The translations under genes were made by a program, and so were the position numbers. From Parcubacteria bacterium C7867-001 (GTDB lineage Bacteria > Patescibacteriota > Minisyncoccia > Phycocordibacterales > Phycocordibacteraceae): a stretch of 64,000 nt of DNA. Shown here piece by piece: positions 28,209-64,000 of the stretch. The notes under the pieces are model-generated. The model made no database searches. It was not told where the DNA came from and was given only the letters and a program-made list of their open reading frames with translations. Numbering within the stretch: the first letter of the stretch is position 1; each line of letters opens with the position of its first letter. The stretch covers positions 20,133 to 84,132 of the forward strand of contig LFCK01000001.1 in NCBI GenBank assembly GCA_001189095.1, in the 5' to 3' direction.

Positions 28209-29351
28209 ATGCCAGAACGTCGTGAGACTCGCGACGGGATCGGGTTCTTCGGGTGGGCGGGTTTACTCGCACTCCTGTTGATTATTTTCGGAGGCGCGTT
28301 CCTGTATTGGGACACGCACCGGAACCCCAGCCTGTCGAATGATTCCGGCGCCGCGCCTTTTGCGGCTACGGAGGATACGAGTACTGAACCGGTGGAGGCG
28401 CGTGCGCCACCACCGGAAGAACCGGCTGCGGAAACCAAACCGCAGACCGACTCGCCGAAGCCGCGTAACACCGGCTTCTACTACGGTCTGAAGGATCCGA
28501 GCGAGCTCGCAAAGCTCGTCGAGGACAATCTTCGGAAGGATCCGACGGGGAAGACGATGATCAACCCCGAGAAATGCGCCAAGGACGGCTCATGCGCCAG
28601 TCCTCATGACTATCTCGTTATGTTCCAAGAGAACGACCCGGAAGCTGAGCTCACGTCAGTGGCCCAGCTCCCTGCGTTCCTGCGGAGCCTTGTCGCTCGG
28701 GACCCCGGTCCCGGCGAGTATCAGATGGCGTGCATCAGGATGCCGGCTCACACGCCGGACCTGCACTGCATGAAGCGTAAATTCCTGCCGGGCGAAAAGG
28801 TCTATGTCGACCCCAAGTCGAATAGGGCCATCTTTGCTTGGCACTGCACGAACCCCATCGATAAACCGGTGGAGCCACGGCAGTGCATGGAAATCATGGT
28901 GACCATCAAAGGCGAGCGTTCGATGAAGTTCGCGCACCTCGGCCCCGCCAAGGTGCAGGACTCGTGCCTTGCTTTGCGCAAGGTCGGAGTGGGAGTAATT
29001 CCGCTTCGCGAGTACGTCGGTGAGTGCGACTTCGACGCGGTTGCCGAGTTCTTCGGCGAACGCGTGCGCGAGGAGTACTGCGTTCCGGTAACACCCGGTA
29101 CGTACATTCTCACGGTCGCGGCGAAGCCTTACGGCGAGCCAAAGACCCGTCACTGGTGGGTGTTCTGTTGGTCGGATGAGGACGACGTGTCGTCGAACAC
29201 GATGCGCGTCCGAGACTTCGATTACATCGGCAACGATGTGCGTCGCGCGACGATTTACAACTCGCGCGATGAAATGGAAGACAAGACCTATCCCAAGAGC
29301 GTTTCGCACTTGTGGATTCCGTGGAGCGAAGAGCCCGGCACGGACCGCTAA
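28209..29351 (+). CDS. Membrane-anchored Cys-rich hypothetical protein (380 aa)
   Basis: A GAGGAGG RBS is present. There is an N-terminal TM anchor (FFGWAGLLALLLIIFGGAFLYW), a Pro/Glu-rich linker, and more than 10 Cys in the C-terminal domain. A terminator lies at 29358-29400. Confidence 0.55.
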   Translation: MPERRETRDGIGFFGWAGLLALLLIIFGGAFLYWDTHRNPSLSNDSGAAPFAATEDTSTEPVEARAPPPEEPAAETKPQTDSPKPRNTGFYYGLKDPSELAKLVEDNLRKDPTGKTMINPEKCAKDGSCASPHDYLVMFQENDPEAELTSVAQLPAFLRSLVARDPGPGEYQMACIRMPAHTPDLHCMKRKFLPGEKVYVDPKSNRAIFAWHCTNPIDKPVEPRQCMEIMVTIKGERSMKFAHLGPAKVQDSCLALRKVGVGVIPLREYVGECDFDAVAEFFGERVREEYCVPVTPGTYILTVAAKPYGEPKTRHWWVFCWSDEDDVSSNTMRVRDFDYIGNDVRRATIYNSRDEMEDKTYPKSVSHLWIPWSEEPGTDR

Positions 29352-29357
29352 GGGAAT

Positions 29358-29400
29358 GGACGGCACGCTTCGCGTGCCGTCCTGAACCTCCTCTTTTTTG
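29358..29400 (+). terminator. Intrinsic terminator after the Cys-rich protein gene
   Basis: ggacggcacgc-ttcg-cgtgccgtcc is followed by a T6 run about 10 nt downstream. Confidence 0.5.
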
Positions 29401-29464
29401 TACGCCCGCAAGGGCAGGGGCTTATTTATTACCTGTTTATCAATTGAACGAAACAACAACACGT

Positions 29465-31381
29465 ATGGTGTACTTCACCGAACAGATCGCATATGTGAAA
29501 TCGCGACCGATTGCCGTCGGTATTTTCGCCGTGCTTGCTGCCGTCTCGATCGGCATGACCGTCGCTGTCGCGACTGGCATGACGCTTCCGACGAAAGCGT
29601 TCGCGGACGTTGGTCCTCCCTGCTGCACGGAGCCGCCTCCTCCGCCCCCGCCTCCTCCACCACCCCCACCGCCTCCGTCGAGCTGTGATTCACTCACGGC
29701 GTCGGCAACGGAAATTAATTCAGGCGATGCGGTTACCCTTACGTGGCACACCACCAACGCCGACTCGGTCACTATCGATCAGGGTGTTGGTTCGGTGACA
29801 CCAGTCGGTTCAGGTTCGGTTGTCGTACATCCGACTGCGGATACGACGTACTCGGCTACCGTTACGGGTCCTGGCATCGTCAGCGAGCCGTGCCATGTTG
29901 AAGTAAAGATAAAGACCATCACTAACTCGGCGCAGTGCGTGTCGTTTGCGGCAAGCGCGTCGAACATCACGGCTGGTCAGGCAGTCACGCTTTCGTGGCA
30001 GACCCTTAATGCAACGGGAGTTACCATCGACAACGGTGTCGGTGCGGTAACGCCGATTGCGTCCGGTTCCACTGTCGTGCATCCGACCGCGAACACGACC
30101 TATACCGCAACGGTTGCAGGTGCAACCGGTAACGTGACGTGTGCCGCTTCGGTCCACATCACGACTATTACAACCGGTCCGTCTTGCGTCGCTCTTACAG
30201 CGAACAAGACCACGATTAGTTCTGGCGAAGCAGTCGTTCTCTCGTGGCAGACGCTTAATGCCACCTCGACCTCAATCGATCAGGGCATTGGTTCGGTTAC
30301 TCCAGTCGGTTCAGGTTCCGTAACGGTGAACCCAACCTCTGATACGACCTACACCATGACCACTGCGGGCGCTCCGGCGAACGACAGCTGTAAGGTGACG
30401 GTTCGCATTCAGACGAGTTCCTGCGTCGGCTCGTGCTGCACAGGCAGCTGCGGTGGCGGCGGTAATCCGAAGCCGAAGGTCATCCTTGGCGTCGCAACCT
30501 CTTCGCCGCTTGCCTTCGTGTATCTCTCGCAGGTTCCGTACACCGGTCTTGATCTCGGTCCGCTCGGTACCTTCATGTACTGGCTCGTGCTCATCCTCTG
30601 GAGCGCAGCAGCTGCGTACCTTGTGCTCTTCACGGCAGCCCCATTCGCTGCTCGTCGTCTCCGTTCGTTCGGGGAAGATGTGCGCGATGTTCTCAATGGA
30701 AATGAATCGGTCTCAACTGCGCCGGTCATGCAGGCATCGGCGGGGGATCATTCAGGTGGACATAATCTTATGCCGCACGCTCCAGTTCCAGTTCACCGTG
30801 CTCCAGAAGCATCGAGCACGTTCTCGAACTTCCACGGCTTCCGCTCGTTTGCGCAGGGCACTGAGCTTACGATCGATGATCTCGTGAAGGGACTCGCTCG
30901 CGAACACGCAGTACATGCTGCTCCAGTTGCGCATATCGAGGATCCGAAAGAAGATGCGTACGCGTTCTCGTCTGAACGAAATGTCGAGCCTATCGCCCCG
31001 CATCTTCCGACTGAAATAGGGAAGATTGAACCGATCATGGACGTATTCGCACACGCAATCGAAGTTCGTGGATTCATTTCCGCGCTCGTCGAGAAGGACA
31101 AGGAGGCGCTCTTCGGCGCACTTCGCCAAATCGTTCGCGGCGGCGGTAGCGTTGAGCACTTCCTTACGCAGGTCGCGCACGCACTCGATGATGTCTTCCG
31201 CTCGCGCATCGACGGTACGCCGGCAGATCCCGAGATGGTTCGCATCTGTGTGAACTGCGACACGCCGGTTCTTGAGCAGCTCGTCGGTCACTTTGCGACG
31301 GCAATCGACTCAAGCTACTCGACCGATGTCACGGCAGGTAAGATGGCGGTCACTCGCGCACTTACGACGCTCGAAGCGTAA
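29465..31381 (+). CDS. Modular membrane protein with six parts: signal/anchor; poly-Pro linker; three tandem Ig-like repeats of about 80 aa; a VPYTG motif; a TM helix; a C-terminal domain of about 240 aa
   Basis: The protein has PPPPPPPPPPPPPPP. The repeat consensus is AVTLxWxTxNAxxxxIDxGxGxVTPxxSGSxxVxPTxxTTY. Further downstream is SQVPYTGLDLGPLGTFMYWLVLILWSAAAAYLVLF followed by RRLR. The ORF-track start at 29312 overlaps the upstream gene and is rejected. Confidence 0.6.
   Translation: MVYFTEQIAYVKSRPIAVGIFAVLAAVSIGMTVAVATGMTLPTKAFADVGPPCCTEPPPPPPPPPPPPPPPSSCDSLTASATEINSGDAVTLTWHTTNADSVTIDQGVGSVTPVGSGSVVVHPTADTTYSATVTGPGIVSEPCHVEVKIKTITNSAQCVSFAASASNITAGQAVTLSWQTLNATGVTIDNGVGAVTPIASGSTVVHPTANTTYTATVAGATGNVTCAASVHITTITTGPSCVALTANKTTISSGEAVVLSWQTLNATSTSIDQGIGSVTPVGSGSVTVNPTSDTTYTMTTAGAPANDSCKVTVRIQTSSCVGSCCTGSCGGGGNPKPKVILGVATSSPLAFVYLSQVPYTGLDLGPLGTFMYWLVLILWSAAAAYLVLFTAAPFAARRLRSFGEDVRDVLNGNESVSTAPVMQASAGDHSGGHNLMPHAPVPVHRAPEASSTFSNFHGFRSFAQGTELTIDDLVKGLAREHAVHAAPVAHIEDPKEDAYAFSSERNVEPIAPHLPTEIGKIEPIMDVFAHAIEVRGFISALVEKDKEALFGALRQIVRGGGSVEHFLTQVAHALDDVFRSRIDGTPADPEMVRICVNCDTPVLEQLVGHFATAIDSSYSTDVTAGKMAVTRALTTLEA
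29630..29677 (+). repeat. CCN simple-sequence repeat encoding poly-proline
   Basis: The DNA is ccgcctcctccgcccccgcctcctccaccacccccaccgcctccg. Confidence 0.8.
29681..30415 (+). repeat. Three diverged tandem coding repeats (about 243 nt each)
   Basis: The repeats are recognisable at DNA level (gtcggttcaggttc...ccgac...acgac.ta.ac) and at protein level. Confidence 0.7.
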
Positions 31382-43925: not shown

Positions 43926-45887
43926 CACGAGTTCAAAATCGAGTTCGCGTTCGAAGGGCCGTGCGGCAATAAGGCGTACACGTATCGGGTCGCCAAGTGC
44001 GTATTCCTTCTTCGTACGCTCGCCCACAAGGCGATAACGCTTTTCATCAAAGGTGTAGTAGTCGTCGCCGATTGAGTTGATGCGCACCATACCGTCTGCG
44101 CGCGTCGACTGTTCTTCCACGTAGAAACCGTTTGCCGTGACGCCGGAAATAACCGCATCGAATTCGGTTCCAATCTTGTCCATGAGGAACTCGACCTGCT
44201 TGAGCTTGATCGAGTCGCGTTCTGCTTCCGAAGCAGAGACTTCGCGTTCGCTTGAGTGGACCGCGAGACGCTCGAGCTCATCGAGCTCTTTCTTGGTGAC
44301 CTCGTCGCCATGCTCGATGTGCTTCACCATGCGGTGCACGAGAAGGTCCGGATAGCGGCGAATCGGTGAGGTGAAGTGCGTGTAGTGCGAAAAGGCGAGA
44401 CCAAAGTGGCCATTGTTCTTCGTCGTATAAATAGCCTTGCTCATCGAGCGAAGGGTCGCGCTCTTAATGAGATATTCTTCCGGCTTTCCTTTCACCTGTT
44501 CGAGGAGCTGATTAAGGTCCGTACCTTTCACTTGGCCGGCGCCCGTGACTGGCAGGTTATAGCCGAGAACTTTGAGGAACGCCGCAAGATTTTCGATGCG
44601 TTCTGCGTCTGGAACATCGTGCACGCGATAAATGACGCCATTCGCAAGACCTTTTTTCTTGGTCGTCTTTTCCAAATGCTCCGCAACCGCTTCGTTTGCA
44701 AGAAGCATGAAGTCTTCGATGAGGAGATTCGTCGCTTTGCGTTCCTTGAGGCGGATAGCGATTGGCTTGCCGTTCTCATCGAGTTCGATTTTCACTTCGG
44801 CGGTGTCGAATTCAATAGCGCCCTTCTTCACGCGGCGTGCGCGGATCTTGTCCGCAAGCGTTTTAAGAATAGTGAGCTCTTTGAAGAGTTCGCCTTCGCC
44901 CTTGTCGAGCACTTCCTGCGCGTTTTCGTATGTAAATCGTTTATCCGAGTGAATGACCGTCTCACCGAACCATGTCTCAATGATGCCGGCATCCTTGTCG
45001 AGTGTGAACACGGCAGAGACAGCGAGACGATCGAGGTCAGGATTAAGTGAGCAGAGATTGGTGGAGAGGACGTGCGGAAGCATTGGAATGGTGCGATCAA
45101 CGAGGTACACGCTCGTTGCGCGGTTGCGGCCTTCTGCGTCGATTTCGGTACCGGGGACGACAAAATGCGAGACGTCCGCGATATGCACGCCGATTTCAAA
45201 ATTTCCATCAGGAAGCTCTTTCACTGAAAGCGCGTCGTCGAAGTCTTTTGCATCGAAGGGGTCAATAGTGAAGGTCGTGGTGCCGCGGAAGTCCTTGCGG
45301 CGCGGGTCTTTTGCACCGGCGTCGAGCATTGCTTGGCCGTTCTTTTCGAGTTCTTCCGCTTCTTTCTTTACGCCGGGAGGGAAGTCAGAGTGGAATCCTT
45401 GCGCGAGTGCGACGGCGCGCATTTCGACGTCGTGGTCGCCCGCGATACCAATAACTTCTTTCACCGTGCCCCACGGGAAACGGGCTCCTGCGTCCCAGCC
45501 GCCAAGCGTAATAAGCACTTTGTAGCCGAACGGGGGATTCTCACCGCGCACTTCAAACGGCACGTACATCTTCTTCCAGTCGGGAATCAGAATGGCCTTG
45601 AACTGGCTTGCATCTTCTGGCTTCGGTTCGATGAGTTTACCGACGAATTCCGTGCGAGCGCGCGTGACTATTTCGAGCACTTTGCCCGCTTCCCGCTTCC
45701 CGCCCGAACGGCGGTCTTCAATGAAGCCGACTGATTGCACTTTCACGATGTCGTAGGGGAATGCGCCGCCGAGGTCATCAGCTTGGATGATGAAGTCCTC
45801 CTTGCCGTTTTCCCGCGCAAAAAAGCCCGTGCCGCTTCGCGTCACGGAAATCACTCCTTCATATATCGTTTCGTCCTTTGCGGCCAT
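43920..45887 (-). CDS. rnr: Ribonuclease R (RNB-family 3'-5' exoribonuclease with a C-terminal S1 domain)
   Basis: HFGLAFSHYTHFTSPIRRYPDLLVHR is the RNB catalytic motif. Confidence 0.85.
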   Translation of the reverse strand: MAAKDETIYEGVISVTRSGTGFFARENGKEDFIIQADDLGGAFPYDIVKVQSVGFIEDRRSGGKREAGKVLEIVTRARTEFVGKLIEPKPEDASQFKAILIPDWKKMYVPFEVRGENPPFGYKVLITLGGWDAGARFPWGTVKEVIGIAGDHDVEMRAVALAQGFHSDFPPGVKKEAEELEKNGQAMLDAGAKDPRRKDFRGTTTFTIDPFDAKDFDDALSVKELPDGNFEIGVHIADVSHFVVPGTEIDAEGRNRATSVYLVDRTIPMLPHVLSTNLCSLNPDLDRLAVSAVFTLDKDAGIIETWFGETVIHSDKRFTYENAQEVLDKGEGELFKELTILKTLADKIRARRVKKGAIEFDTAEVKIELDENGKPIAIRLKERKATNLLIEDFMLLANEAVAEHLEKTTKKKGLANGVIYRVHDVPDAERIENLAAFLKVLGYNLPVTGAGQVKGTDLNQLLEQVKGKPEEYLIKSATLRSMSKAIYTTKNNGHFGLAFSHYTHFTSPIRRYPDLLVHRMVKHIEHGDEVTKKELDELERLAVHSSEREVSASEAERDSIKLKQVEFLMDKIGTEFDAVISGVTANGFYVEEQSTRADGMVRINSIGDDYYTFDEKRYRLVGERTKKEYALGDPIRVRLIAARPFERELDFELVK

Positions 45888-45952
45888 TTACGCCTAAAAT
45901 ATAGCATCTTCCGCATATATCGACACGAAATGAGGCGCGTGGCATAGTCTTT

Positions 45953-46297
45953 TTGGAGTTCTCTGGAAATGACTCCTTGGAAAGGTTTTTACCAATGGGA
46001 GAAGTTAGTTTGGGGGCGATGTCGATCGCATTCTTGTGGTTTGCAGGAATTGTCGGCGTTTTTGCCCTCTGGATGTCGTTCGTCGAAAGTTGGCCGAACG
46101 CTCAGATGTTCACACCGATGTGGTTCGGCGGGGCATTCGCTCTCGCGGGCGCCGCGCTGCTTTCCGCAGCCAAAACGACCTACCCGATGCTGTGTGCAGG
46201 CGCCGTCCTGTGCGGCATCGGAATCATCTTCATGAGCGTGTATCTGCACGTTTTCGTGAAAGCGGGGTACCAGCGGGTTACCTATAAAACCTACTGA
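45953..46297 (+). CDS. Small hypothetical membrane protein
   Basis: Hydrophobic helices are present. A terminator lies at 46300-46338. A likely internal start MGEVSL lies near 45995. Confidence 0.4.
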   Translation: MEFSGNDSLERFLPMGEVSLGAMSIAFLWFAGIVGVFALWMSFVESWPNAQMFTPMWFGGAFALAGAALLSAAKTTYPMLCAGAVLCGIGIIFMSVYLHVFVKAGYQRVTYKTY

Positions 46298-46374
46298 CCA
46301 AAGGCGCCTCGGATGTATCCGAGGCGCCTCTTTATTTGACCAAAAGCCCCTATTTTGGTACTCTCCACGGACAT

Positions 46375-46815
46375 ATGTTGATGATCCGCTTTCAGCGAAT
46401 TGGCCGCAAGAATGATCCGGCTTTTCGTATTGTCGTACTCCCGAAGACCTCGGGCCCTAAAGCTGGTACCTATACCGACCTCATCGGTACCTACAACCCG
46501 AAGACCAAGGAATTTAAGATCGAAGCAGACCGCCTCAAGGACTGGATGAGCAAGGGTGCCCAGCTTTCCCCAAGCCTTTCGAACCTCCTCATTGATAAGA
46601 AGATCATCGAAGGTAAGAAGGTGAATGTCCTTCCGAAGAAGTCTCCTATCAAGGATCCTGAAGCTGAAGCAAAGGCTGCTGCAGCGGCCGCAGCAGCAGC
46701 TGCGCCGGTTGTTGCTGAGGCAGCTCCTGAAGTTGTTGAAGAAGCGCCCGCTGAAGCTCCGGTTGAAGAGGCAGCTCCTGCTGAGGAAGTTGCACCTGCC
46801 GAAGCTGCGGCATAA
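46375..46815 (+). CDS. rpsP: Ribosomal protein S16 with an Ala/Glu/Pro-rich C-terminal extension
   Basis: MIRFQRIGRKNDPAFRIVV matches the S16 N-terminus. The C-terminal tail is low-complexity AAAAAAAAAPVVAEAAPE. Confidence 0.8.
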   Translation: MLMIRFQRIGRKNDPAFRIVVLPKTSGPKAGTYTDLIGTYNPKTKEFKIEADRLKDWMSKGAQLSPSLSNLLIDKKIIEGKKVNVLPKKSPIKDPEAEAKAAAAAAAAAAPVVAEAAPEVVEEAPAEAPVEEAAPAEEVAPAEAAA

Positions 46816-46848
46816 CCGCGCGCGCTACGCGCGCGTCATTACTTTTCT

Positions 46849-47172
46849 ATGGATATGGATGTAACGAATGCAAAGGAATTTCTTGAATACGTGATACGCC
46901 AGCTCGTCGATCATCCGGACGAGGTTTCGATCGTTCCGACACTCGACAACTTCGGCGTCCTCCTCACCCTCAAAGTCCACAAGGACGATATGGGCAAGCT
47001 CATCGGTAAGGGAGGCAAGTTCGCTACCGAAACCATTCGCCCGCTTATGAAAGCCTACGGCTACAAGCATGGTGCAAACATTAGCGTGAAGCTCGCAGAA
47101 CCGGTTGGCGGCAAGCGCTACAGCGAAGCGCCAGAACTTAAGTCGGTAGACGAAGCATTGGGCGAGCTATAA
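46849..47172 (+). CDS. khpA: KH-domain RNA-binding protein (KhpA/YlqC-like)
   Basis: KLIGKGGKFATETIRPL carries the GxxG KH motif. The position after rpsP is conserved. Confidence 0.7.
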   Translation: MDMDVTNAKEFLEYVIRQLVDHPDEVSIVPTLDNFGVLLTLKVHKDDMGKLIGKGGKFATETIRPLMKAYGYKHGANISVKLAEPVGGKRYSEAPELKSVDEALGEL

Positions 47173-47182
47173 TTCTTTATAT

Positions 47183-47740
47183 ATGACTACGACTCGTGGA
47201 TTCGCGTTCATAACGGTACTCATTGCCGTTGCTGGTCTTTTGATGCTCGGTGGGACCGCGTACGTCGTTACGCAGGATTCGATGAAAGCTCCGGCGGATC
47301 AGGTCGCTACGATGGAAGAGAAGCATGTGCAGACGGCGCCCGGGGATCATCCAGAAGTTGATCATGATGCCAATGGTGGCGTAGCGGCATCTGCCACAGG
47401 AAAAATCGGCATTAACTGGAAGTTTGAGAGCGCGGGCGAAAAGGACTATGTTCCGCAAACCAAAGTCACGGCGATAGTAAGCAGCAAGCCGCATGTCGTC
47501 GGTGTATTCGCGGGTACCTGTTCTGAAATAGGACCGTCAGGCGGCGTTGATGGGAAAGGTCTTCTCGCCGGCGAACTTTCTGGCGTTCAATGCTGGTATG
47601 CAGGAGGCGGCAATGAAATCGGTCTCTTCGCGATAGAGGACGGCGGCGTCGAAATCATGGTTGGCGAACTCGATGAAGGCAGTGCTGAGAATGCCGGTGT
47701 CCGCGGTAACTTCAAGATTCGCACCGACATCAAGCTCTAA
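47183..47740 (+). CDS. Membrane-anchored hypothetical protein occupying the usual rimM slot
   Basis: There is an N-terminal anchor (FAFITVLIAVAGLLMLGG). No PRC-barrel/RimM motifs are recognised. Its stop overlaps the trmD start as TAATG. Confidence 0.5.
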   Translation: MTTTRGFAFITVLIAVAGLLMLGGTAYVVTQDSMKAPADQVATMEEKHVQTAPGDHPEVDHDANGGVAASATGKIGINWKFESAGEKDYVPQTKVTAIVSSKPHVVGVFAGTCSEIGPSGGVDGKGLLAGELSGVQCWYAGGGNEIGLFAIEDGGVEIMVGELDEGSAENAGVRGNFKIRTDIKL

Positions 47741-48396
47741 TGCTTCGTTTTCATCTCATTACTCTCTTTCCGGAAGCATGCGATGCGTATCTTTCCGCAT
47801 CCATCCTTGGTCGTGCTCGTACGAATAAAAAGATAGCGGTGAAGTATGCGTCTCCGCGCGACTTCGTTGAAAATAAGTGGGGCAAGGTGGACGAGCGTCC
47901 GTATGGCGGCGGTCCCGGCATGGTGATGCAGGCCCTTCCGGTGGTGAAGGCGGCGAAGAAGTCTCTTGGCACCAAAAAGAAAGCAGCGATTGTTTGGTTC
48001 GCACCAAACGCAAAGCCTTTTGATAACAAAGAGGCGGACAAACTCGCGAAGTTTTCTGACGTAGTGCTCGTGTGTGGTCGCTATGAAGGCATTGATGAGC
48101 GCGCAAAGACGATGCTCAAGACGCTCGGTACGCTTAAAGAATACTCAGTTGGTGAAGCGGTTTATACGGGTGGGGAAGTTCCGGCACTCGCTATTGTGGA
48201 TGCGGTAACGCGTCGTCTCAAGGGGGTGCTCGGTAAGGATGAGTCGGTGGAAGAGCGGCGCGTGGCCTCCCGCGCCGTCTACACGCGTCCCGACACCATT
48301 TCCTTTAACAAGAAAAACTACAAAGTTCCCGCGGTTCTCAAGACTGGCCACCACGCAAATATCGATACATGGAAGACCAAGAAAAACACGCGCTAG
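47740..48396 (+). CDS. trmD: tRNA (guanine37-N1)-methyltransferase
   Basis: LITLFPE....ERPYGGGPGMVM and VLVCGRYEGIDER match the TrmD SPOUT motifs. Confidence 0.85.
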   Translation: MLRFHLITLFPEACDAYLSASILGRARTNKKIAVKYASPRDFVENKWGKVDERPYGGGPGMVMQALPVVKAAKKSLGTKKKAAIVWFAPNAKPFDNKEADKLAKFSDVVLVCGRYEGIDERAKTMLKTLGTLKEYSVGEAVYTGGEVPALAIVDAVTRRLKGVLGKDESVEERRVASRAVYTRPDTISFNKKNYKVPAVLKTGHHANIDTWKTKKNTR

Positions 48397-48413
48397 CGTG
48401 GGATACTGAATGT

Positions 48414-48602
48414 ATGGAAGCATCCCCCGGACAAGACCCGTTTGTGCGAAACGAAGAATTTGAAGAGGACGGAAAGACGTATCGTCGGTTCATCCGGCAC
48501 GACGGAACGGCTATGACCATGCTTATAAGCAAAGGATACGAGCCGCGACGCGAAGAGGTCTTCAACGAAGAGACGAAGACGTGGGAACAGAAAGCAGCAT
48601 AA
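48414..48602 (+). CDS. Small acidic hypothetical protein (62 aa; an alternative start at 48369 would overlap trmD)
   Basis: The ORF is followed by a strong bidirectional terminator at 48601-48640. Confidence 0.4.
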   Translation: MEASPGQDPFVRNEEFEEDGKTYRRFIRHDGTAMTMLISKGYEPRREEVFNEETKTWEQKAA

Positions 48603-48640
48603 AAGGAGCGGGCCGGCGCGAAGCGCCGGCCCTTTTTCCT
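48601..48640. terminator. Bidirectional terminator
   Basis: aaaaggagcgggccggcgc-gaa-gcgccggccctttttcc. Confidence 0.7.
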
Positions 48641-48644
48641 GAAC

Positions 48645-48767
48645 TCAGGACTTTTTGGATCTCGGTTCCCACAGGTTGACCATCCATCCGAGGACACAAG
48701 CGCCCCCGAAGAACAGCCCCCAAGAGAGCCCCTTAATCCATTCCCAAGTGGTAGGGTCAATGTGCAT
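48645..48767 (-). CDS. Membrane microprotein of 40 aa
   Basis: The minus strand reads MHIDPTTWEWIKGLSWGLFFGGACVLGWMVNLWEPRSKKS. A GGGAGGTG RBS lies 5-6 nt upstream. A consensus promoter lies upstream and a terminator downstream. Confidence 0.45.
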   Translation of the reverse strand: MHIDPTTWEWIKGLSWGLFFGGACVLGWMVNLWEPRSKKS

Positions 48768-48789
48768 GATTGTGCACCTCCCATTGGAT

Positions 48790-48818
48790 ATAATACAGTA
48801 TTTTAGTATATATGTCAA
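48790..48818 (-). promoter_or_regulatory. Near-consensus sigma70-type promoter on the minus strand (TTGACA, 17-nt spacer, TATTAT) driving the 40-aa microprotein
   Basis: The reverse complement reads acTTGACAtatatactaaaatactgTATTATatccaatGGGAGGTGcacaatcATG. Confidence 0.5.
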
Positions 48819-48848
48819 GTTATGGGGATAACCAGCCCCAAAACAGGC

Positions 48849-48876
48849 TTGACGCCCCCTGCGTGGGGCGTATACT
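48849..48876 (+). promoter_or_regulatory. Candidate sigma70-type promoter upstream of rpoB (TTGACG, 16-nt spacer, TATACT)
   Basis: The sequence cTTGACGccccctgcgtggggcgTATACTgggg lies about 150 nt upstream of the rpoB ATG. Confidence 0.45.
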
Positions 48877-49033
48877 GGGGCTAACCAGAACGGATTGAGT
48901 GATGGGGGCACTCTGGTACAAAAGATCCGATAGTTAGACAATTTTTTAACAGCGTCTCGAGAACGAGGCGAATGGCTTGCATGCGTGCAGGTCCATTTAC
49001 CGTTTTCAGAGATTCCTTCTTCACGACATACAC

Positions 49034-56117: not shown

Positions 56118-56996
56118 ATGAAAATTGCTGGTATTGGCCTCGCGCTCGTCATGTTCGCGATGGTCTCGGGCTGCGGCCCTTCTGCAAAACAAGTCGCTGA
56201 GGCGACCGCTTCGATCAACGCGCAAGACCGAGCTCTCGATCGGCGCGATGCGCTCGATCGTCTGATGAAGTCGCTTAGGCCTGTTGACCAGGCTCGATTC
56301 GAGATGGAAATGTTCCGCGTGCGTGATGCACGCGAACTCCGTCTGGGCGACAACGCCTCGAAGGGCGAAATTCTGCGCGCGCGGAAAGTCATATGGCGCG
56401 CGGAAGAACTCGCTGAATACAAGTTGCCTGCAACGGCAACCGACGAGGATCTCTATGCGGCAAAAGAACGCAAATGGCTCAAAGAAGACGCGAAAGACCT
56501 CGGCCTTCCGGTGAGCGCATCAAAAGCGCAGGTCGATGCGGCGCGCAAAGCGAAGTACGACGCTGACAGCGAGAAGTCTCGCGTCAGGATGGCGCTCGAC
56601 CTCGGTCTTCCCGCGACAGCGTCGTGGAAAGAAATCGAAACAGCGGAAGCCGATAGGCGTCGCGTCGATGCTGCACTTCGGCACGGGCTGCCAAAAACGG
56701 CCACGTGGGTCCAAATCAGCCGCAAGGCTGACGAGGATAACGCGGCGACCGATGCGAAGTACAAGGCGCTTCGGCGGGCGAACAGCGACTACGAAAAGGC
56801 GCAGGACGCACTCGAGGACGCACAGCGTCGCATCGACGCACTCGAAGCCGGCCTTCCGGAAACAGCGAGTCGCGATCAAATCGAGGAGCACGAAATCAAT
56901 CGTGTGCGTCGCTATGCGGCGGCCAACCTCGGTCTCTCTGAGGGTTCGTCTTGGGGGCTCATTTTCGATGCGACCCAGCACGACTCTCGATACTAG
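56118..56996 (+). CDS. Lipoprotein with five or six tandem degenerate repeats centred on an (L)GLPxTAS motif
   Basis: The lipobox is AMVSGC. The motifs KLPATAT, GLPVSAS, GLPATAS, GLPKTAT, GLPETAS and GLSEGSS are spaced about 25-40 aa apart in a charged helical background. Confidence 0.65.
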   Translation: MKIAGIGLALVMFAMVSGCGPSAKQVAEATASINAQDRALDRRDALDRLMKSLRPVDQARFEMEMFRVRDARELRLGDNASKGEILRARKVIWRAEELAEYKLPATATDEDLYAAKERKWLKEDAKDLGLPVSASKAQVDAARKAKYDADSEKSRVRMALDLGLPATASWKEIETAEADRRRVDAALRHGLPKTATWVQISRKADEDNAATDAKYKALRRANSDYEKAQDALEDAQRRIDALEAGLPETASRDQIEEHEINRVRRYAAANLGLSEGSSWGLIFDATQHDSRY

Positions 56997-57005
56997 AAAC
57001 GACTA

Positions 57006-57040
57006 CAACGCCCCGCGGCTTCCGCGGGGCGTTTTCTTAT
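57006..57040 (+). terminator. Intrinsic terminator after the lipoprotein gene
   Basis: caacgccccgcgg-cttc-cgcggggcgttttctta. Confidence 0.7.
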
Positions 57041-57380: not shown

Positions 57381-57410
57381 AACGGCCCGCCAAAGGCGGG
57401 CCGTTTTTCT
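57381..57410 (+). terminator. Intrinsic terminator, near-identical to the one at 31395-31427
   Basis: taacggcccgcc-aaa-ggcgggccgtttttct. Confidence 0.65.
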
Positions 57411-57450
57411 ATCCAAGCAGGCAACCGCCAAAAAGAGTAAAATACTCCTA

Positions 57451-59136
57451 ATGGCCGCAGACACCGTCGAATTGATAAAGCAGAAGTTGACCATCGTCGA
57501 TGTGGTGTCGCCGTATGTAAAGCTCACGCGTGCCGGTAAGTATTTTAAGGGCCTCTCGCCCTTCAATAAGGAAAAGACGCCATCTTTCATGGTCTCGCCC
57601 GATCGCGGAAGCTATTACTGTTTCTCTTCTGGTCAGGGCGGCGACATGTTCACCTTCATCGAGAAGATGGAAGGAGTTGATTTCAAGGGTGCGATGAAAA
57701 TTCTCGCGGAGAAGGCGGGCGTTGAGATTGTGTTTTCAAAAGGGGGAAGCGCCAATAAAGAAAAAACCGAGCGGCTGCGCGAAGCGCTAGGAGAGGCGGA
57801 GCAGTTTTATGCCCGCGCATTTGTCGAAGGAGGCGCTGCGCATGAATACGCGAAGAAGCGCGGACTTACTTCGCAAACCATGCAAGAGTGGCGCATCGGC
57901 TATGCGCCGGACGCATGGCGTGCGCTTTTCGAGGAACTTTCCGCAAAAGGATTTACGACGCAAGAACTCGTTGACGCAGGGCTCATAAAAGAAGCGGACG
58001 AAAAGCGCGGTACCTACTACGATCGCTTCCGAAATCGCCTTATGTTCCCGATTCGGGATTCCGCAGGTCGCACCGTTGCCTTCACCGGCCGCGCACTCGA
58101 CCCGAACGACCAAGCGAAATACCTCAATAGCCCTGAAACCGAGCTATATAAAAAAGGTCAGATTCTTTTCGGAATGGATCGGGCAAAGGATGCGATTCGT
58201 ACGCGCGGATTCGCGCTTCTCGTCGAAGGTCAGTTCGATCTCATCCTCCTGCATCAGATTGGATTCACGAATACCATCGCGCTTTCAGGGACGGCGCTCA
58301 CGCACGAGCACATTTCACTCATTAAGCGTTACGCAGAAAATCTCATGCTCGCGCTCGATGCAGACCGCGCTGGTTTAGCCGCAAGCGCCAAGCATGCGAT
58401 AGCCGCGCTCCGTTCCGGTATGCGTGTGAAAGCGGTCCGTATACCGCAAGGCAAGGATCCTGCGGATTTGGCGAACGAGGATCCGAAGGGAATCACGAAG
58501 CTCATCGCGGACGCCCAGTCCATCGTGGAGTTCTTTTTGGCCGTCCTTACGGGAGCCGAGAAGGATCAGCATAAGCTGGTGGTTGCCGTGGAGAAGGTCG
58601 TTTTACCCCTTATACAGGCCATCCAGAGTCCCTTGGAGCGGGAGCACTTCATCGGGGTGGCTGCTCGGGCCATAGGGTCAACGGCGGACGCTGTCCGTAG
58701 CTCTCTTTCCAAAGCTCCAAGACTTGAGGATATGCCTCGCCAGACAGGTACCACGAACGCCCCGCTTCCGGCCGCGCAGCTTTCCCCGCTTGAAGCCCGC
58801 CGAAAGTATCTTCATGCAGTTGCGGTGAATTGTGCTGGTTCTGAGGTTGCCAAGACCCTAGAAGAGGAGTATAAAAGGATTACAGGCACATCGCTCCCCG
58901 AGGAACTCCCGTCCGAGCGAATGCTATTTGAGGCAGGACTCGCATTTGTCGAGATGCCCACACCGCTAGAAGTAGAGGATCTTATAAAGAGTTTCGAGCA
59001 TGTCTTCCTCAAGGAAGAGATTGCTCGTGCGTCAGCGCGTGTACGTCAGGCGGAAATCGCCGGCGATACCAAGGATATGCAGTCCGCAATGCAGGAACTG
59101 AAAGCGCTTTCGACGAAACTCTCCGTGCTCTCCTAA
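57451..59136 (+). CDS. dnaG: DNA primase with a degenerate (ligand-deficient) zinc-ribbon
   Basis: LSPFNKEKTPSFMVSPDRGSYYCFSSGQGGDMF aligns with the DnaG CHC2 finger, but three of the four ligands are S, N and S. The Toprim domain has LLVEGQFDLI. The upstream TTG ORF start overlaps a terminator and is rejected. Confidence 0.8.
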   Translation: MAADTVELIKQKLTIVDVVSPYVKLTRAGKYFKGLSPFNKEKTPSFMVSPDRGSYYCFSSGQGGDMFTFIEKMEGVDFKGAMKILAEKAGVEIVFSKGGSANKEKTERLREALGEAEQFYARAFVEGGAAHEYAKKRGLTSQTMQEWRIGYAPDAWRALFEELSAKGFTTQELVDAGLIKEADEKRGTYYDRFRNRLMFPIRDSAGRTVAFTGRALDPNDQAKYLNSPETELYKKGQILFGMDRAKDAIRTRGFALLVEGQFDLILLHQIGFTNTIALSGTALTHEHISLIKRYAENLMLALDADRAGLAASAKHAIAALRSGMRVKAVRIPQGKDPADLANEDPKGITKLIADAQSIVEFFLAVLTGAEKDQHKLVVAVEKVVLPLIQAIQSPLEREHFIGVAARAIGSTADAVRSSLSKAPRLEDMPRQTGTTNAPLPAAQLSPLEARRKYLHAVAVNCAGSEVAKTLEEEYKRITGTSLPEELPSERMLFEAGLAFVEMPTPLEVEDLIKSFEHVFLKEEIARASARVRQAEIAGDTKDMQSAMQELKALSTKLSVLS

Positions 59137-59151
59137 TTTTATTTTCACACT

Positions 59152-60405
59152 ATGGCTAAGAAAAAGACCGTAAAGAAGAAGGCTTCTTCGAAATCCGCAA
59201 AGAAAGCGGGAAAAAAGTCTGCGCCCAAAAAGAAGAAGGTTGTTAAGAAAGCAGTAAAGAAGGTCGCAAAGCCGAAGAAGAAAGAGCAGATGAAGAACGT
59301 CGTCCGTGTGGCGGCGAAGGGTGCGCGTGCAAAAGCTGCGGCAGAGAAGGGAGACAAAGCAGAGCGTCTTCTTCAGAAGGGTAAGGAGCGCGGCTACATC
59401 ACTTACAGCGAAATTCTTAAGGAATTCCCGCACATCGAGGAAGATGTGCAGTTCCTCGATTCCCTCTACGAAAAGTTCTCATCGAATGGCATCGACATTC
59501 TCGAAGGCGGCATGCTCGAAGACAATGCCGACCAGTATCTTGCGACCCGCAATATCAAAGGTCGTGAGGGTGCGAGCTATGACTCCATTCAGATCTACCT
59601 TCGTGAAATAGGTCAGTACCCGCTTTTGACCGCCTCTGAAGAGCGTGAGCTCGCCAAGCGCATCGAGAAGGGAGAAGACGAAGCGCGCAACATCCTCGCT
59701 CGCTCGAACCTCCGCCTCGTGGTCTCTATCGCGAAGAAATACGTGGGCCGCTCGCCGGACCTCACGCTCCTCGACCTCATTCAGGAAGGAAATCTCGGTC
59801 TCTTCAAGGCTGTCGATAAATTCGATTGGAAGAAGGGCTACAAGTTCAGCACGTACGCAACGTGGTGGATTCGTCAGGCCATCACCCGCGCACTTGCTGA
59901 TCAGTCCCGCACCATCCGCATTCCGGTCCACATGGTGGAAACCATCGCGAAGTACAAGCAGATTTCCCGTCGCCTTTCGCAGGCCCTTGGTCGCGATCCG
60001 CAGCCGGAAGAAATTGCCGTAGAAATGGGTGTCGAAGTGGAGAAAATCTACCAGATCGAGAAGATAAATCAGGACACTCTCTCACTTGAGAACCCAATCG
60101 GTTCTGATGACGATGAGAAGTCGACCCTCGGTGACTTCATCGCAGACGACAAGATTCCGTCCCCGATTCAGGAGTCTTCTGAACGCATCCTTGGTGAGCA
60201 AGTCCGCGACATCCTCGACGACCTTTCACCGAAGGAGCGCAAGATTCTCGAGATGCGTCACGGTCTCCTCGATGGTGTGTATCACACGCTTGAAGAAGTG
60301 GGTAAGGAGTTCGGCGTTACCCGCGAACGCATCCGCCAGATTGAGGCGAAAGCTCTCGAGAAAATTAGAACTCATGAGAAATCCCGAAGACTCAAGAGTT
60401 ACTAA
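59152..60405 (+). CDS. rpoD: RNA polymerase sigma-70 factor with a Lys-rich N-terminal extension of about 50 aa in place of an acidic region 1.1
   Basis: Region 2 has [13 protein letters not shown]. Regions 3 and 4 are present. The N-terminus is [44 protein letters not shown]. The dnaG-rpoD synteny is conserved. Confidence 0.85.
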
Positions 60406-60632
60406 TTTTCTCTTTCGAAGATCCGGATACCCCAAGGGTACTTCCAATTTCCTAACTCGCTGTCGCTCCTAACGAAATTTGGGCGCGCACGAAAAGCCTC
60501 AAAATATCAAAGTAAACAACCAGTTTATTTGGGGAGGAAATACTGGTGCCTAATGGCGCGTGTGGACAAAAAACTCACCTGTTATAGAGTTTAGGTATCC
60601 GATAGCTATAACAACAGCCGGCACATACACGC

Positions 60633-61331
60633 ATGGCCATTTTTTCCAAAAAAAGAAGTCTAATATCAGGCGAGATTAGATACCGACCTACATTAACCTC
60701 TGCAAAAGGGGGTGTTGAGCTTGCAAAGCTACTTGAGGGAAAATTTCCTCATTGGCGAATTCGCAACGGACAGGACGTGGCACTTCTCGACGAAACAAAA
60801 AAGTGGCTGATCGAAATTAGATATAACTCACTTATTTTTCAAAATGAAGGCGAGGAAGCAGGAACAGAACTTATTGATCTCCTTGAGCTCGTGTTCAACG
60901 AAGTTAAGGAACATTTTGGCATAAGTGATTATTTACACGTAGGTTGTCGCAATAAGTCTGTTTACGCTTGCTCATTTCAAGAGAAAGACCTAGTTGATTT
61001 AACTTTCCGTAAATTGTATGGAAATACGTCCGTGCTTACTTCAATGTCAGGTGACAAATTAAGGGATACAGGTTTTGTACTAGATGCAACAAAGGGTGAA
61101 CTAAACACGCATGTTCAAATTGGTCCAGCAAAAGAAGGTCAGGCAGAAAATTTCATCAACAACCAATTTGATGTAGAAGATCTAGAAGGTAATAGCTTCT
61201 TAATGGTAGACGTGGACGTATTTAAGAAAACCTCCCTCACAAAGGAGAGCTGCATTAACGTACTGAAGGAGGCCGCCGCTGTAAATTCTGAAGTAACCTC
61301 AGGGTACATCGACTTCTTGTCTACAAAATGA
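60633..61331 (+). CDS. Island gene A: hypothetical protein (232 aa) with no recognisable domain
   Basis: The ORF has an AT-rich composition distinct from its surroundings. Its stop overlaps the next start as ATGA. Confidence 0.55.
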   Translation: MAIFSKKRSLISGEIRYRPTLTSAKGGVELAKLLEGKFPHWRIRNGQDVALLDETKKWLIEIRYNSLIFQNEGEEAGTELIDLLELVFNEVKEHFGISDYLHVGCRNKSVYACSFQEKDLVDLTFRKLYGNTSVLTSMSGDKLRDTGFVLDATKGELNTHVQIGPAKEGQAENFINNQFDVEDLEGNSFLMVDVDVFKKTSLTKESCINVLKEAAAVNSEVTSGYIDFLSTK

Positions 61332-61945
61332 TATTCCCAGTTCTACCGCCAGCCGACATAAACCTAACTAATTTTGCTGCTCAGCAGGGTGTGATTGATC
61401 GCAATAGAAAGACGTCTGAAAGCGCTTCAGTTGAACGTTCAAGCAAGGATTCAGAGCGTGTTGAGGTTGAGAGGAAAGAGATAACGGCGGAGAGTGTCGT
61501 TTCTGAAGATCAAACTGTCATTGAGGGTGTCGAATTCAAAGAAAGTGATAAAAGCTCTTCTTCAGTCAACGACCAATCGCGTGAGCATTTCTCCAACGAG
61601 GGCTTTGGCGATGCATATATAAAACACAGTACAGCAGCAGCAATATTGCAGATTAAGAATCTCATCGAGGAGTGGAATAAAAAAGGAACTAAGGATAGTA
61701 CCTCAGAAATAAGCCAAATAAAAACTACTCTTGAGGAATACGCACCCTTCTTTACAGAAAGACCGGAGTCAGAAGTCTTACTGGGAGGACTGGAGACTAT
61801 TTTTGATGGTGATAGATGGGAAAGACTCGATTCAGCTAAATTAACCTTGATATCCAGGCAGCTTGAGAACTTTCAAGCTGGAAATGTGAGATGGGAGTCA
61901 CTCAGGAGATTTGCTCGAGAGATTTACTCTGCCGAAATTGTCTAA
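61328..61945 (+). CDS. Island gene B: hypothetical protein (205 aa) with a Ser/Glu-rich disordered N-terminal half and a helical C-terminal half
   Basis: The composition is AT-rich. The gene is translationally coupled to A. Its stop lies 2 nt before the start of C. Confidence 0.55.
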   Translation: MIFPVLPPADINLTNFAAQQGVIDRNRKTSESASVERSSKDSERVEVERKEITAESVVSEDQTVIEGVEFKESDKSSSSVNDQSREHFSNEGFGDAYIKHSTAAAILQIKNLIEEWNKKGTKDSTSEISQIKTTLEEYAPFFTERPESEVLLGGLETIFDGDRWERLDSAKLTLISRQLENFQAGNVRWESLRRFAREIYSAEIV

Positions 61946-61947
61946 AT

Positions 61948-62718
61948 ATGGCGAAGAGACAGAAGGTTCTAATAGATACTTCTATTCAAATCGGAAAATT
62001 AAAATATAAAGAAATTAGAGAAAAAATAAGAGAAATCGCTGAAACAGAAGATCCCGGGACGTCCTTTTTTGTGCTGTTTGAGTTCAAGGTCGGAGTGATT
62101 CTAAGTTTTATTGAATATTGGAACTTTGTAAATATTTCAGAAAATGTCTCGAAGGCTATGAGTAGATGGTCCGAGAAATATAGTGTTAGAGACGTTAAAT
62201 ACTTTGTAATGTTGCAAGCGATACTGGCTGAGAAATTTGAAAACATCTCCACAGACAAAAAGAAGCATTTAAGACAAGTTGAATTTATCATAATGTTCAC
62301 CATTGAAAACTTCTTCGCAGATATTCGAGATATACCAGTTGGTGATTTTAGGTATGACGAAATAGTGCGTTATGAAATAAAATCACGAGTTGATTACCCG
62401 GGGTTTGTGAAATTGTGCTATGAGAAAAACGAGATGGTAGATCAAAGGAAGTTTTGGACAAAATACAGAGCGGAACTAGATAAATTGGTTGCTGATGCGG
62501 ACCTGGAGAAGTGCCACTCTTCATTACACGAAGCGTTAACTCGTATTCAATCTGATATTAAATATGCTCACATGGTGAAAACGAATAAATCTATTGGAGA
62601 CGCCGTAATAACAGTTGACAGTAGACATGATACTCGCATTCTCACAACAGATTCTTCGTTCGAGAAGTTGGCGCCGATTTTAGGAAAGACTTTTGAGAAG
62701 ATACCAAATAAATACTAG
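61948..62718 (+). CDS. Island gene C: expanded PIN-like domain protein (256 aa), putative nuclease
   Basis: QKVLIDTSI resembles the PIN beta-1 Asp motif. FVLFEF supplies a conserved Glu. GDAVITVDSRHDTRILTTDSSF resembles the PIN C-terminal motif. About 150 aa are inserted between these elements. Confidence 0.5.
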   Translation: MAKRQKVLIDTSIQIGKLKYKEIREKIREIAETEDPGTSFFVLFEFKVGVILSFIEYWNFVNISENVSKAMSRWSEKYSVRDVKYFVMLQAILAEKFENISTDKKKHLRQVEFIIMFTIENFFADIRDIPVGDFRYDEIVRYEIKSRVDYPGFVKLCYEKNEMVDQRKFWTKYRAELDKLVADADLEKCHSSLHEALTRIQSDIKYAHMVKTNKSIGDAVITVDSRHDTRILTTDSSFEKLAPILGKTFEKIPNKY

Positions 62719-62729
62719 GACTCTTTGGC

Positions 62730-63167
62730 TCAACTACTTTTCCTTCGATTCTCTCGAACAATCGTAATTATGAGAACGGTCTCAGCGAGCGCGCCAAGTA
62801 TTATCTCGTTAGCGAAAGGAAATTTAAAAAAGTGAAAGTCTGCGAGACCAAAGACCATCAGAATTCCTAGACACAGATAGAATCCCACAGCAGTCATCAG
62901 AGCTCCTTCTACAAGATCTAAAAAGAAGGATGTACTACTGCGCCGGCCCTTATAGGCCGCGCCGATAACAATTGAATTTGTAACTACAAATGGTCCAGTA
63001 AAGGCTATTGATAACAAAACGAGTTTAATCCAATCCAGTTGGAATACTTGATTGGGATTATATACGTACATGGCCGTTAAGCCTGGCAAAATAATTGCCA
63101 AAACAGCAAAGAAAGCAAGTAAAAATGATTTATCCTGAAATGTTCGAACCATTGATCTAACGCTCAT
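62730..63167 (-). CDS. Island gene D: four-TM membrane protein (145 aa), convergent with C
   Basis: Four hydrophobic helices are present. The composition is AT-rich like A-C. Confidence 0.5.
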   Translation of the reverse strand: MSVRSMVRTFQDKSFLLAFFAVLAIILPGLTAMYVYNPNQVFQLDWIKLVLLSIAFTGPFVVTNSIVIGAAYKGRRSSTSFFLDLVEGALMTAVGFYLCLGILMVFGLADFHFFKFPFANEIILGALAETVLIITIVRENRRKSS

Positions 63168-63242
63168 TCGTTTATTCTAACATCGACCGAATGGGCTCGC
63201 CTTCTTCATCGAAATTAGAGGGTTGGACGGTATACTGAGTCC

Positions 63243-63716
63243 ATGAAAAAGATACAACCGTTTTTGTGGTTCAAGGAGAATGGGCAGGAGGCTATGGAGC
63301 TGTATACGAAGCTGTTTCCGGATTCGAAGATCGGCAATATAACCATGCTGCCGGACGCGCCAGGGCCTAAGGGTCAGTTCGTGGGCGAGTTCGAACTTAT
63401 GGCTGAGAAGTATATGTGCATACAGGGAGGAGAGAATCCGATGCTTGCTGCGGTGGGACCTGTATCGCTCGTCGCACTCTGCGATACACAGGAAGAGATA
63501 GATAAGCTTTGGGATGCCTTCAAGGAGGGCGGGAAGGAAATCGCGTGCGGCTGGATTACAGATCGCTTCGGCATTACGTGGCAGGTCACGCCGACCGTAC
63601 TCGGCGAATACATGAGCGATCCAGATCAGGAGAAAGCGCATCGCACCGCTATCGCGATGATGAATATGGTGAAGTTCGATATCGCTGCCCTCAAACGCGC
63701 GCACGACGGCGAATAG
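63243..63716 (+). CDS. PhnB-like / 3-demethylubiquinone-9 3-methyltransferase-domain protein (VOC/glyoxalase fold)
   Basis: MKKIQPFLWFKENGQEAMELYTKLFPDSKI is the typical family N-terminus. GC content returns to background. Confidence 0.65.
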   Translation: MKKIQPFLWFKENGQEAMELYTKLFPDSKIGNITMLPDAPGPKGQFVGEFELMAEKYMCIQGGENPMLAAVGPVSLVALCDTQEEIDKLWDAFKEGGKEIACGWITDRFGITWQVTPTVLGEYMSDPDQEKAHRTAIAMMNMVKFDIAALKRAHDGE

Positions 63717-63721
63717 CGCCT

Positions 63722-64000
63722 CTAGAGTGAATCCAAGCCCTCGGAAACCGTGACAACACGGACGTTATTTGCTTTGAGGTAATCCACGAGCTGATTGAAG
63801 AGTGTGGGCGTGATGCAGTATTGGTCCGAGCAGGAGCTTTGTACTTGGTGTGCGGTCAAGATGAGCCAGCGCTTATTCGCTAGCGCGGTGTCTACTCGGT
63901 TCTTAATCTCTGTCCAGGTGGTCGATGATTCGAGACCGTATCGCTCGAGCTGGTACGGATCTGATGCGAGTGTGACGTAGCCGCCGTTCGAGCTCGCGGC
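63722..64000 (-). CDS. C-terminal fragment of a protein running off the right edge (possibly polysaccharide-deacetylase-like)
   Basis: The minus strand reads ...NGGYVTLASDPYQLERYGLESS...RWLILTAHQVQSS...NNVRVVTVSEGLDSL*. The identification is tentative. Confidence 0.35.
   Translation of the reverse strand, partial: AASSNGGYVTLASDPYQLERYGLESSTTWTEIKNRVDTALANKRWLILTAHQVQSSCSDQYCITPTLFNQLVDYLKANNVRVVTVSEGLDSL

Follow-up and report, generated by a model that had tools for sequence, protein, structure and literature searches.

A DnaG primase whose zinc-ribbon domain lacks three of its four metal ligands, a state shared across a Patescibacteria lineage and recurrent in other bacteria

Here, we analyze a 64,000-nucleotide stretch of the genome of Parcubacteria bacterium C7867-001 (assembly GCA_001189095.1, contig LFCK01000001.1, positions 20,133 to 84,132 of the forward strand; hereafter the window, with positions counted from its first letter) and provide evidence that its primase gene dnaG (57451..59136, + strand) encodes a zinc-ribbon-type domain that has lost its metal site. 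The reading that we favor, with a probability of roughly three in four, is that the product works in replication as a primase whose ribbon is free of metal, with the side chains of Ser, Asn, Cys, Ser and Ser forming a polar network in place of zinc. The domain comprises residues 1-96 (57451..57738, +; PF01807 over residues 3-96), and a HMMER alignment to DnaG of Aquifex aeolicus (2AU3) places S36, N39, C57 and S60 opposite the zinc ligands C, H, C and C. The first knuckle reads S36 (TCG, for Cys), P37, F38 and N39 (AAT, for His) at 57556..57567 (+), and the second reads C57 (TGT, kept), F58, S59 (TCT, for Gly) and S60 (TCT, for Cys) at 57619..57630 (+). The four codons at ligand positions (TCG 57556-57558, AAT 57565-57567, TGT 57619-57621, TCT 57628-57630) are in frame and no frameshift is present. 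An initial annotation of the window had described the loss of three of the four ligands (C to S, H to N, last C to S) with a single Cys left, and the 2AU3 alignment agrees; it missed that the Gly between ligands 3 and 4 (CFGCG) has become Ser59. Residues 1-100 contain C57 as their sole Cys and lack His altogether, which excludes any other alignment that would restore the metal site by putting further Cys or His residues at the ligand positions.

The gene encodes DnaG, as had been annotated, which in the reading favored here is the genome's replicative primase. Its product of 561 amino acids (ATG start, followed by a stop; an alternative longer frame has a TTG start from 57373) matches TIGR01391 (dnaG, NCBIfam) over the whole protein with 394.2 bits against a curated cut-off of 283.6, as well as the Pfam families Zn_ribbon_DnaG (PF01807, 1.1e-28), DNAG_N (4e-41) and Toprim_2 (1.6e-19), and its best match in the PDB is 2AU3. 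The open reading frame 57451..59136 (+) includes GLSPFNKEKTPSFMVSPDRGSYYCFSSGQGGDMF, and the N-terminus of the protein reads ...KGLSPFNKEKTPSFMVSPDRGSYYCFSSGQGGDMF... The nearest DnaG homologues are named Parcubacteria, Paceibacterota or Patescibacteria.

Loss of the ligands is not accompanied by loss of the catalytic apparatus. The RNA-polymerase core, made up of DNAG_N (residues 127-246) and Toprim (255-342) in Pfam and encoded at 57829..58476 (+), retains the catalytic residues E259, D263, D303, D305 and D336 and the motif KYLNSPE (K223-E229). In an alignment of 221 Patescibacteria sequences, which covers both the class with the canonical ligands C-H-C-C and the class without them (hereafter zinc-free), these acidic and basic motifs are nearly all invariant, and the same is true of 99 zinc-free sequences drawn from five lineage groups. 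The earlier impression that the rest of the protein is intact thus holds for the catalytic core and the Toprim motifs, and less so for the DnaB-interaction region, where the Pfam family DnaB_bind matches residues 384-409, 5' of the C-terminal domain, with E=0.019, below the cut-off. The C-terminal helical domain itself (residues 446-561; 58786..59133, +) is presumed to bind the helicase; AlphaFold2 predicts helices with a predicted local distance difference test (pLDDT) score of 80-93, and the Foldseek match to the primase C-domain 2r6a_C is weak (TMt 0.38). The third acidic Toprim motif, D336-P-A-D339 (58456-58467), reads DPAD versus DPD in solved primases, with Ala338 nearly invariant among the DnaGs of Patescibacteria, whether canonical or zinc-free. 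Being common to both classes, DPAD is a clade trait unrelated to ligand loss.

The ribbon fold is predicted to be retained without the ligands. An AlphaFold2 model, computed with an alignment of 59 zinc-free sequences, has a mean pLDDT of 87 and shows a ribbon of five strands at about 86-90, which Foldseek superposes on the ribbon of G. stearothermophilus DnaG (1D0Q, 1d0q_A) with a TM-score of 0.83 and a root-mean-square deviation of 1.1 Å over 90 columns. The model also matches TWINKLE structures weakly.

The ligand loss is lineage-wide, being present in all of the 120 nearest homologues (best 120, 60-98% identity, Patescibacteria/Paceibacterota; counts of 121 include the query). S36 and C57 are each found in 121/121 of these sequences, position 39 is N in 100, T in 20 and A in 1, and position 60 is S in 87 and T in 34. 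Among the best 150 representatives of clusters at 50% identity, 118 are C-H-C-C and 31 are zinc-free, the remaining one being a fragment that lacks the domain. Among the 31, three (P0162, P0174, P0179) carry Asp in place of the last Cys (YYDFSS) and have a ribbon without any Cys. In the alignment of 221 Patescibacteria sequences, positions 36, 39, 59 and 60 split the zinc-free from the canonical class perfectly, and positions 62 (Q/K) and 73 (M) are strongly biased between the two. A partial ligand state was found in none of the several hundred sequences examined. At equal core distance (1.02), ribbons differ by 0.47 among zinc-free versus 0.59 among canonical sequences, a closer likeness that is expected if side chains alone hold the fold. 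As judged from sequence, the zinc-free ribbon is under strong purifying selection. The nearest canonical relative (P0121, 53% identity) is also found in a dnaG-rpoD context, and its homologues comprise 75 canonical and 24 zinc-free sequences, the few named ones being Kaiserbacteria, Minisyncoccia or Paceibacterota.

The initial annotation had treated the window DnaG as one odd protein. It belongs, however, to a large class that is polyphyletic and has cultured model bacteria among its members. When the second knuckle, back-translated from Y[Y/H]CF[S/T][S/T]x[Q/K/R]GGDxF, was scanned against a single genome for each species, at least 120 loci were returned (L006-L125); the pattern demands Cys at ligand 3, and the Asp variant lies outside this survey. 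Every match listed is a DnaG N-terminus with Ser at ligand 1 and a residue other than His at ligand 2. Since Ser at the first knuckle occurs in all listed matches though it is absent from the scan pattern, the coupling of the changes is all-or-none. Grouped according to their record titles, except for two whose sequences led to reassignment, the zinc-free loci comprise at least about 73 from Patescibacteria, at least 31 from Corynebacterium, with many cultured species (e.g., L026, L077, L119), at least 13 from the PVC group (Verrucomicrobiota plus Lentisphaerota; e.g., L017, L116), at least one from the spirochaete Salinispira (L040) and at least two from alphaproteobacterial metagenome-assembled genomes (L080, L107). 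PVC loci among the matches listed belong to Opitutales, Verrucomicrobiales, Ca. Spyradosoma and Ca. Spyradenecus, and include one Sphaerochaetaceae-labelled contig placed by sequence. Record labels and dnaG type, as judged from the N-terminus, disagree for three loci on contigs of metagenome-assembled genomes, namely L061 ('Clostridia bacterium', a Corynebacterium dnaG), L063 ('Azotimanducaceae', Patescibacteria) and L051 ('Sphaerochaetaceae', PVC), which is likely due to bin contamination or mislabelling. Many third-party annotation (TPA) records labelled 'uncultured Candidatus Saccharibacteria' carry Paceibacteria-like sequences.

Corynebacterium provides the cultured counterpart. With C. 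amycolatum DnaG as the query, a protein search yielded 120 primases from Corynebacterium; the 119 of them that have the domain all read S-K/Q-C-(S/A)-T/S, including that of C. glutamicum MB001 (P0434), which is zinc-free. The catalytic core of C. glutamicum DnaG scores 497 bits with M. tuberculosis DnaG versus about 155 with other primases, and its gene is therefore an actinobacterial dnaG changed in place. Fixation of the state throughout Corynebacterium suggests that zinc-free DnaG is functional.

Several features point to independent origins of the zinc-free state in Corynebacterium, the PVC group and other bacteria. In the catalytic core, the sequences from Corynebacterium, the PVC group, the spirochaete and Alphaproteobacteria share 28-32% identity with the query, but in the ribbon core 60-72%, which equals or exceeds the ribbon-core identity of the nearest canonical relatives (60-65%), whose catalytic cores are 62-65% identical. 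The same state recurs across groups, with C to S, H to a polar residue, the third Cys kept, G to S and the last C to S or T. Codon usage at the replaced positions differs among the matches listed, S36 being encoded by TCN in 72/73 Patescibacteria and by AGY in 12/13 members of the PVC group, and S59 by TCN in 70/73 and by AGY in 11/13, respectively. TCN and AGY represent different routes, each of a single step, from the codons for Cys (TGY) and Gly (GGY), and Ala at position 59 in a few sequences is a plausible Gly to Ala to Ser intermediate on the TCN route. The different Ser codon families of the lineage groups, together with low core and high ribbon identity, argue for convergence.

Within Patescibacteria, the two states are intermingled. 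A neighbour-joining distance tree computed from 312 catalytic-core columns with 100 bootstraps, in which deep nodes are weak, contains one clade with 99% support that unites 38 zinc-free sequences with 38 canonical ones. P0280 (L003:10001-11698), which is canonical, is nested in a zinc-free subclade (bootstrap 94-100) as sister to the zinc-free P0368 (L005:98-1768), with which it shares 83% overall identity and from which it differs mainly in the ribbon core of about 35 residues. P0280 was assembled twice independently, and its synteny, rpoB-rpoC-x-dnaG-rpoD, is that of the window, which indicates that canonical and zinc-free forms are alleles of one locus and not paralogues. Bootstrap values of other mixed sister pairs are 91-98%. 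The tree does not support the view that zinc-free DnaG originated just once in Patescibacteria, given 23 parsimony changes versus about 59 with shuffled labels and the good support of the mixed sister pairs. Columns of the ribbon core follow the ligand state (7 parsimony changes), while the ribbon flanks follow the catalytic-core tree (21 versus 23), a contrast that fits either cassette exchange or convergent co-adaptation. P0280 likewise represents either a reversal or a cassette exchange; in its codon comparison with P0368, synonymous sites are about 50% different along the whole gene, i.e., saturated, and no imported tract is visible.

Based on these observations, the domain of the window DnaG would keep its fold and its template-handling role and would no longer bind zinc. 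Hydrogen bonds and packing of Ser36, Asn39, Cys57, Ser59 and Ser60 would presumably keep the two knuckles joined. Zinc-free DnaG would then be a discrete state, gained or exchanged several times over within Patescibacteria. As to the selective reason, zinc economy and protection from thiol oxidation are hypotheses. Tentatively, and with slightly more doubt than conviction, we extend this to the proposal that the DnaG ribbon has two interconvertible states, of which the metal-free one (Ser...polar...Cys-x-Ser-Ser/Thr) was reached independently in at least four to five lineage groups by different mutational routes and flipped to and fro at one locus in Patescibacteria, possibly by exchange of a cassette of about 35 residues.

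Some points weigh against a functional, metal-free primase with this history. The lone Cys is kept in nearly all members, and a purely structural account leaves it unexplained. AlphaFold does not model metal and may return the family fold whatever its stability. A second, canonical dnaG may exist elsewhere in the genome. We infer both the metal-free state and the priming activity from sequence. For the changes inside Patescibacteria, either convergence or transfer of a ribbon cassette is compatible with the saturated DNA comparison.

It could be argued that the metal was switched and not lost, with zinc bound via Cys57 and additional O or N donors, or with Mg2+, Ca2+ or Na+/K+ bound via the Ser/Thr hydroxyls and Asn. 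The four positions are polar and strictly conserved, and have not turned hydrophobic, as this explanation would have it; one Cys is present in nearly all sequences, and the Asp found in P0162, P0174 and P0179 is a metal-capable residue. However, Ser and Thr hydroxyls are very poor zinc ligands in coordination chemistry, position 39 may be N, T, S, K, A or Q, of which Ala and Lys are unfit as ligands, and no extra His, Asp or Glu has been recruited nearby. We thus regard a switched metal as unlikely, though as the best placed of the alternatives to a metal-free functional ribbon.

Somewhat less probable still is that the ribbon is a decaying vestige, either because template recognition has been lost or relaxed or because another primase does the real work. 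This has a precedent in metazoan mitochondrial TWINKLE, a T7 gp4-like primase-helicase with a Toprim-type primase that lost its zinc-finger cysteines in evolution along with its primase activity (PMC5737085), and a second primase elsewhere in the genome is possible. However, TWINKLE also lost its catalytic residues, whereas every catalytic motif is invariant here and the ribbon is constrained; it is the most conserved part of the protein, with 60-72% identity across lineage groups versus about 30% in the core. Furthermore, the full-length domain is retained through a whole cultured genus (Corynebacterium), and the gene lies at the orthologous dnaG-rpoD locus. The window DnaG is not a member of the TWINKLE-type inactivated primases, as its catalytic residues are kept.

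A regulatory role of the lone Cys57, by thiol modification or by a disulfide that stops priming under oxidative stress, with the other ligands removed to free this residue, is very improbable. It would be in line with the presence of C57 in 121/121 close relatives and in 119/119 Corynebacterium DnaGs, its three partners always being replaced. Yet Asp takes its place in three cluster representatives with no other changes, its canonical counterpart is on a strand and likely buried according to the 1D0Q superposition, and regulation has no other support. Finally, a sequencing, assembly or frameshift artefact or a pseudogene is rejected, as the reading frame runs uninterrupted over its full length, 7 contigs from several independent samples (those listed are JGI 3300001199, SRR2043728 and SRR29904083) encode an identical protein, so that resequencing is not expected to restore the Cys and His codons, and the state is found in 120/120 relatives.

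Genome-wide avoidance of cysteine or zinc was considered separately and is ruled out. RpoC, encoded 1.5 kb 5' of dnaG, retains both of its four-Cys zinc sites (C73/75/88/91 and C844/910/917/920). A zinc-ribbon ribosomal protein gene as a second control was not found in 45850-49000.

According to reviews, the zinc-binding domain selects initiation sites and tunes primer synthesis, and the four zinc-binding residues lie within a highly conserved region of primases (PMC8928506). The residue directly before ligand 3 tunes template choice in the primases of T7 and C. difficile (PMC5737085; specificity link also PMC8928506). This residue is Tyr56 in the window DnaG and His both in the nearest canonical relatives and in the zinc-free Corynebacterium proteins. 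The initial annotation had suggested that initiation-site selection may work differently in the window DnaG. With Tyr in the window clade and His in zinc-free Corynebacterium and canonical relatives, the zinc-free class has no consistent specificity signature, and nothing points to a change of specificity common to its members.

The dnaG gene is followed 15 bp 3' by rpoD (59152..60405, +), its operon partner, which encodes a complete primary sigma factor with the Pfam Sigma70 regions 1.1, 1.2, 2, 3 and 4. The order dnaG-rpoD is common to relatives (L001, L003, L126). In the window, rpoB and rpoC lie upstream (rpoB-rpoC-...-dnaG-rpoD), and dnaE, gyrB and smc are present as well. A terminator-like hairpin with a T-run at 57381..57412 (+; hairpin 57381-57405) has an 11-bp stem with 9 GC pairs followed by TTTTCT, and a second strong GC-rich hairpin with a T-run (57007-57033, +) is located between upstream small open reading frames and dnaG. 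These two elements before dnaG suggest that dnaG and rpoD are transcribed separately from rpoBC and the other genes upstream.

Other parts of the window show further features. The open reading frame 56118-56996 (+) encodes 292 amino acids with a lipoprotein-like signal (…MVSGCG…) and about five 'GLPxTAS(W)xxI' repeats between charged helices, lacks any Pfam match and is conserved 5' of dnaG in two relatives (L126, L127). Directly after rpoD, the GC content falls from about 0.54 to about 0.44 (window 60001-64000), and four open reading frames in this low-GC region (60633-61331, 61328-61945, 61891-62718 and 63177-63704 (-)) are without a Pfam match; the region 60001-64000 may be an acquired island. 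Three large cysteine-rich open reading frames, all on the + strand, at 9707-12952 (1081 amino acids, 17 Cys), 13903-15861 (652 amino acids, 24 Cys) and 29312-31381 (689 amino acids, 16 Cys), probably encode surface proteins; a CARDB domain alone is present in one of them and no Pfam family in the other two.

The window DnaG resembles canonical DnaG (E. coli; 1D0Q; 2AU3) in its apparent three-domain layout, predicted ribbon fold, catalytic motifs and dnaG-rpoD gene order, and differs from it in reading S-N-C-S at the C-H-C-C ligand positions and Ser at the knuckle Gly. Single Cys-to-Ser mutants of T7 primase, made in the Richardson laboratory in the 1990s, reportedly lose zinc and template-directed priming. 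The kind of substitution at ligand positions is the same, but the natural variants change all partners and the Gly together and are evidently viable. Makarova et al. are said to have described in 2001 that the ribosomal proteins L31, L33, L36, S14 and S18 occur in C+ and C- forms, of which the zinc-free ones keep fold and function. Such C+/C- ribosomal proteins are usually pairs of paralogues that are switched by Zur under zinc starvation. In contrast, the two DnaG forms share one orthologous locus across genomes, and no paralogue or Zur link turned up, whole genomes not having been scanned. Cys-free topoisomerase repeats also have an actinobacterial example. In type IA topoisomerases, zinc-bound (Topo_C_ZnRpt) and Cys-free (Topo_C_Rpt) ribbon versions occur by lineage and the enzyme is functional (PMC9369019, PMC10969213). 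That case concerns another protein and another ribbon family, whereas the swap in DnaG is one stereotyped set of residues across phyla. Zinc-finger folds are known to lose their ligands in the course of evolution (PMC4999995, PMC5906684). For a zinc-free DnaG ribbon, we found no description in the full-text literature, subscription journals being outside the scope, although the sequences have long been public.

For the window alone, the finding is modest; its DnaG is typical of its clade. Taken as a class, zinc-free DnaG is moderately surprising and experimentally accessible, and it cleanly illustrates how a metal site can be replaced convergently and in an all-or-none manner. The annotation 'CHC2 zinc finger' is no guarantee of a metal. 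Zinc-free DnaG is also relevant to primase-directed antibiotic design, e.g., of zinc-ejecting compounds. A conserved natural zinc-free ribbon bears on the old question of whether primase zinc is purely structural, for which the tractable C. glutamicum and its zinc-containing relative Mycobacterium offer a ready experimental comparison. If the ribbon indeed has two interconvertible states, zinc would be dispensable for template recognition by primase, and the switch between them may reflect adaptation to scarce zinc or to stress that oxidises thiols.

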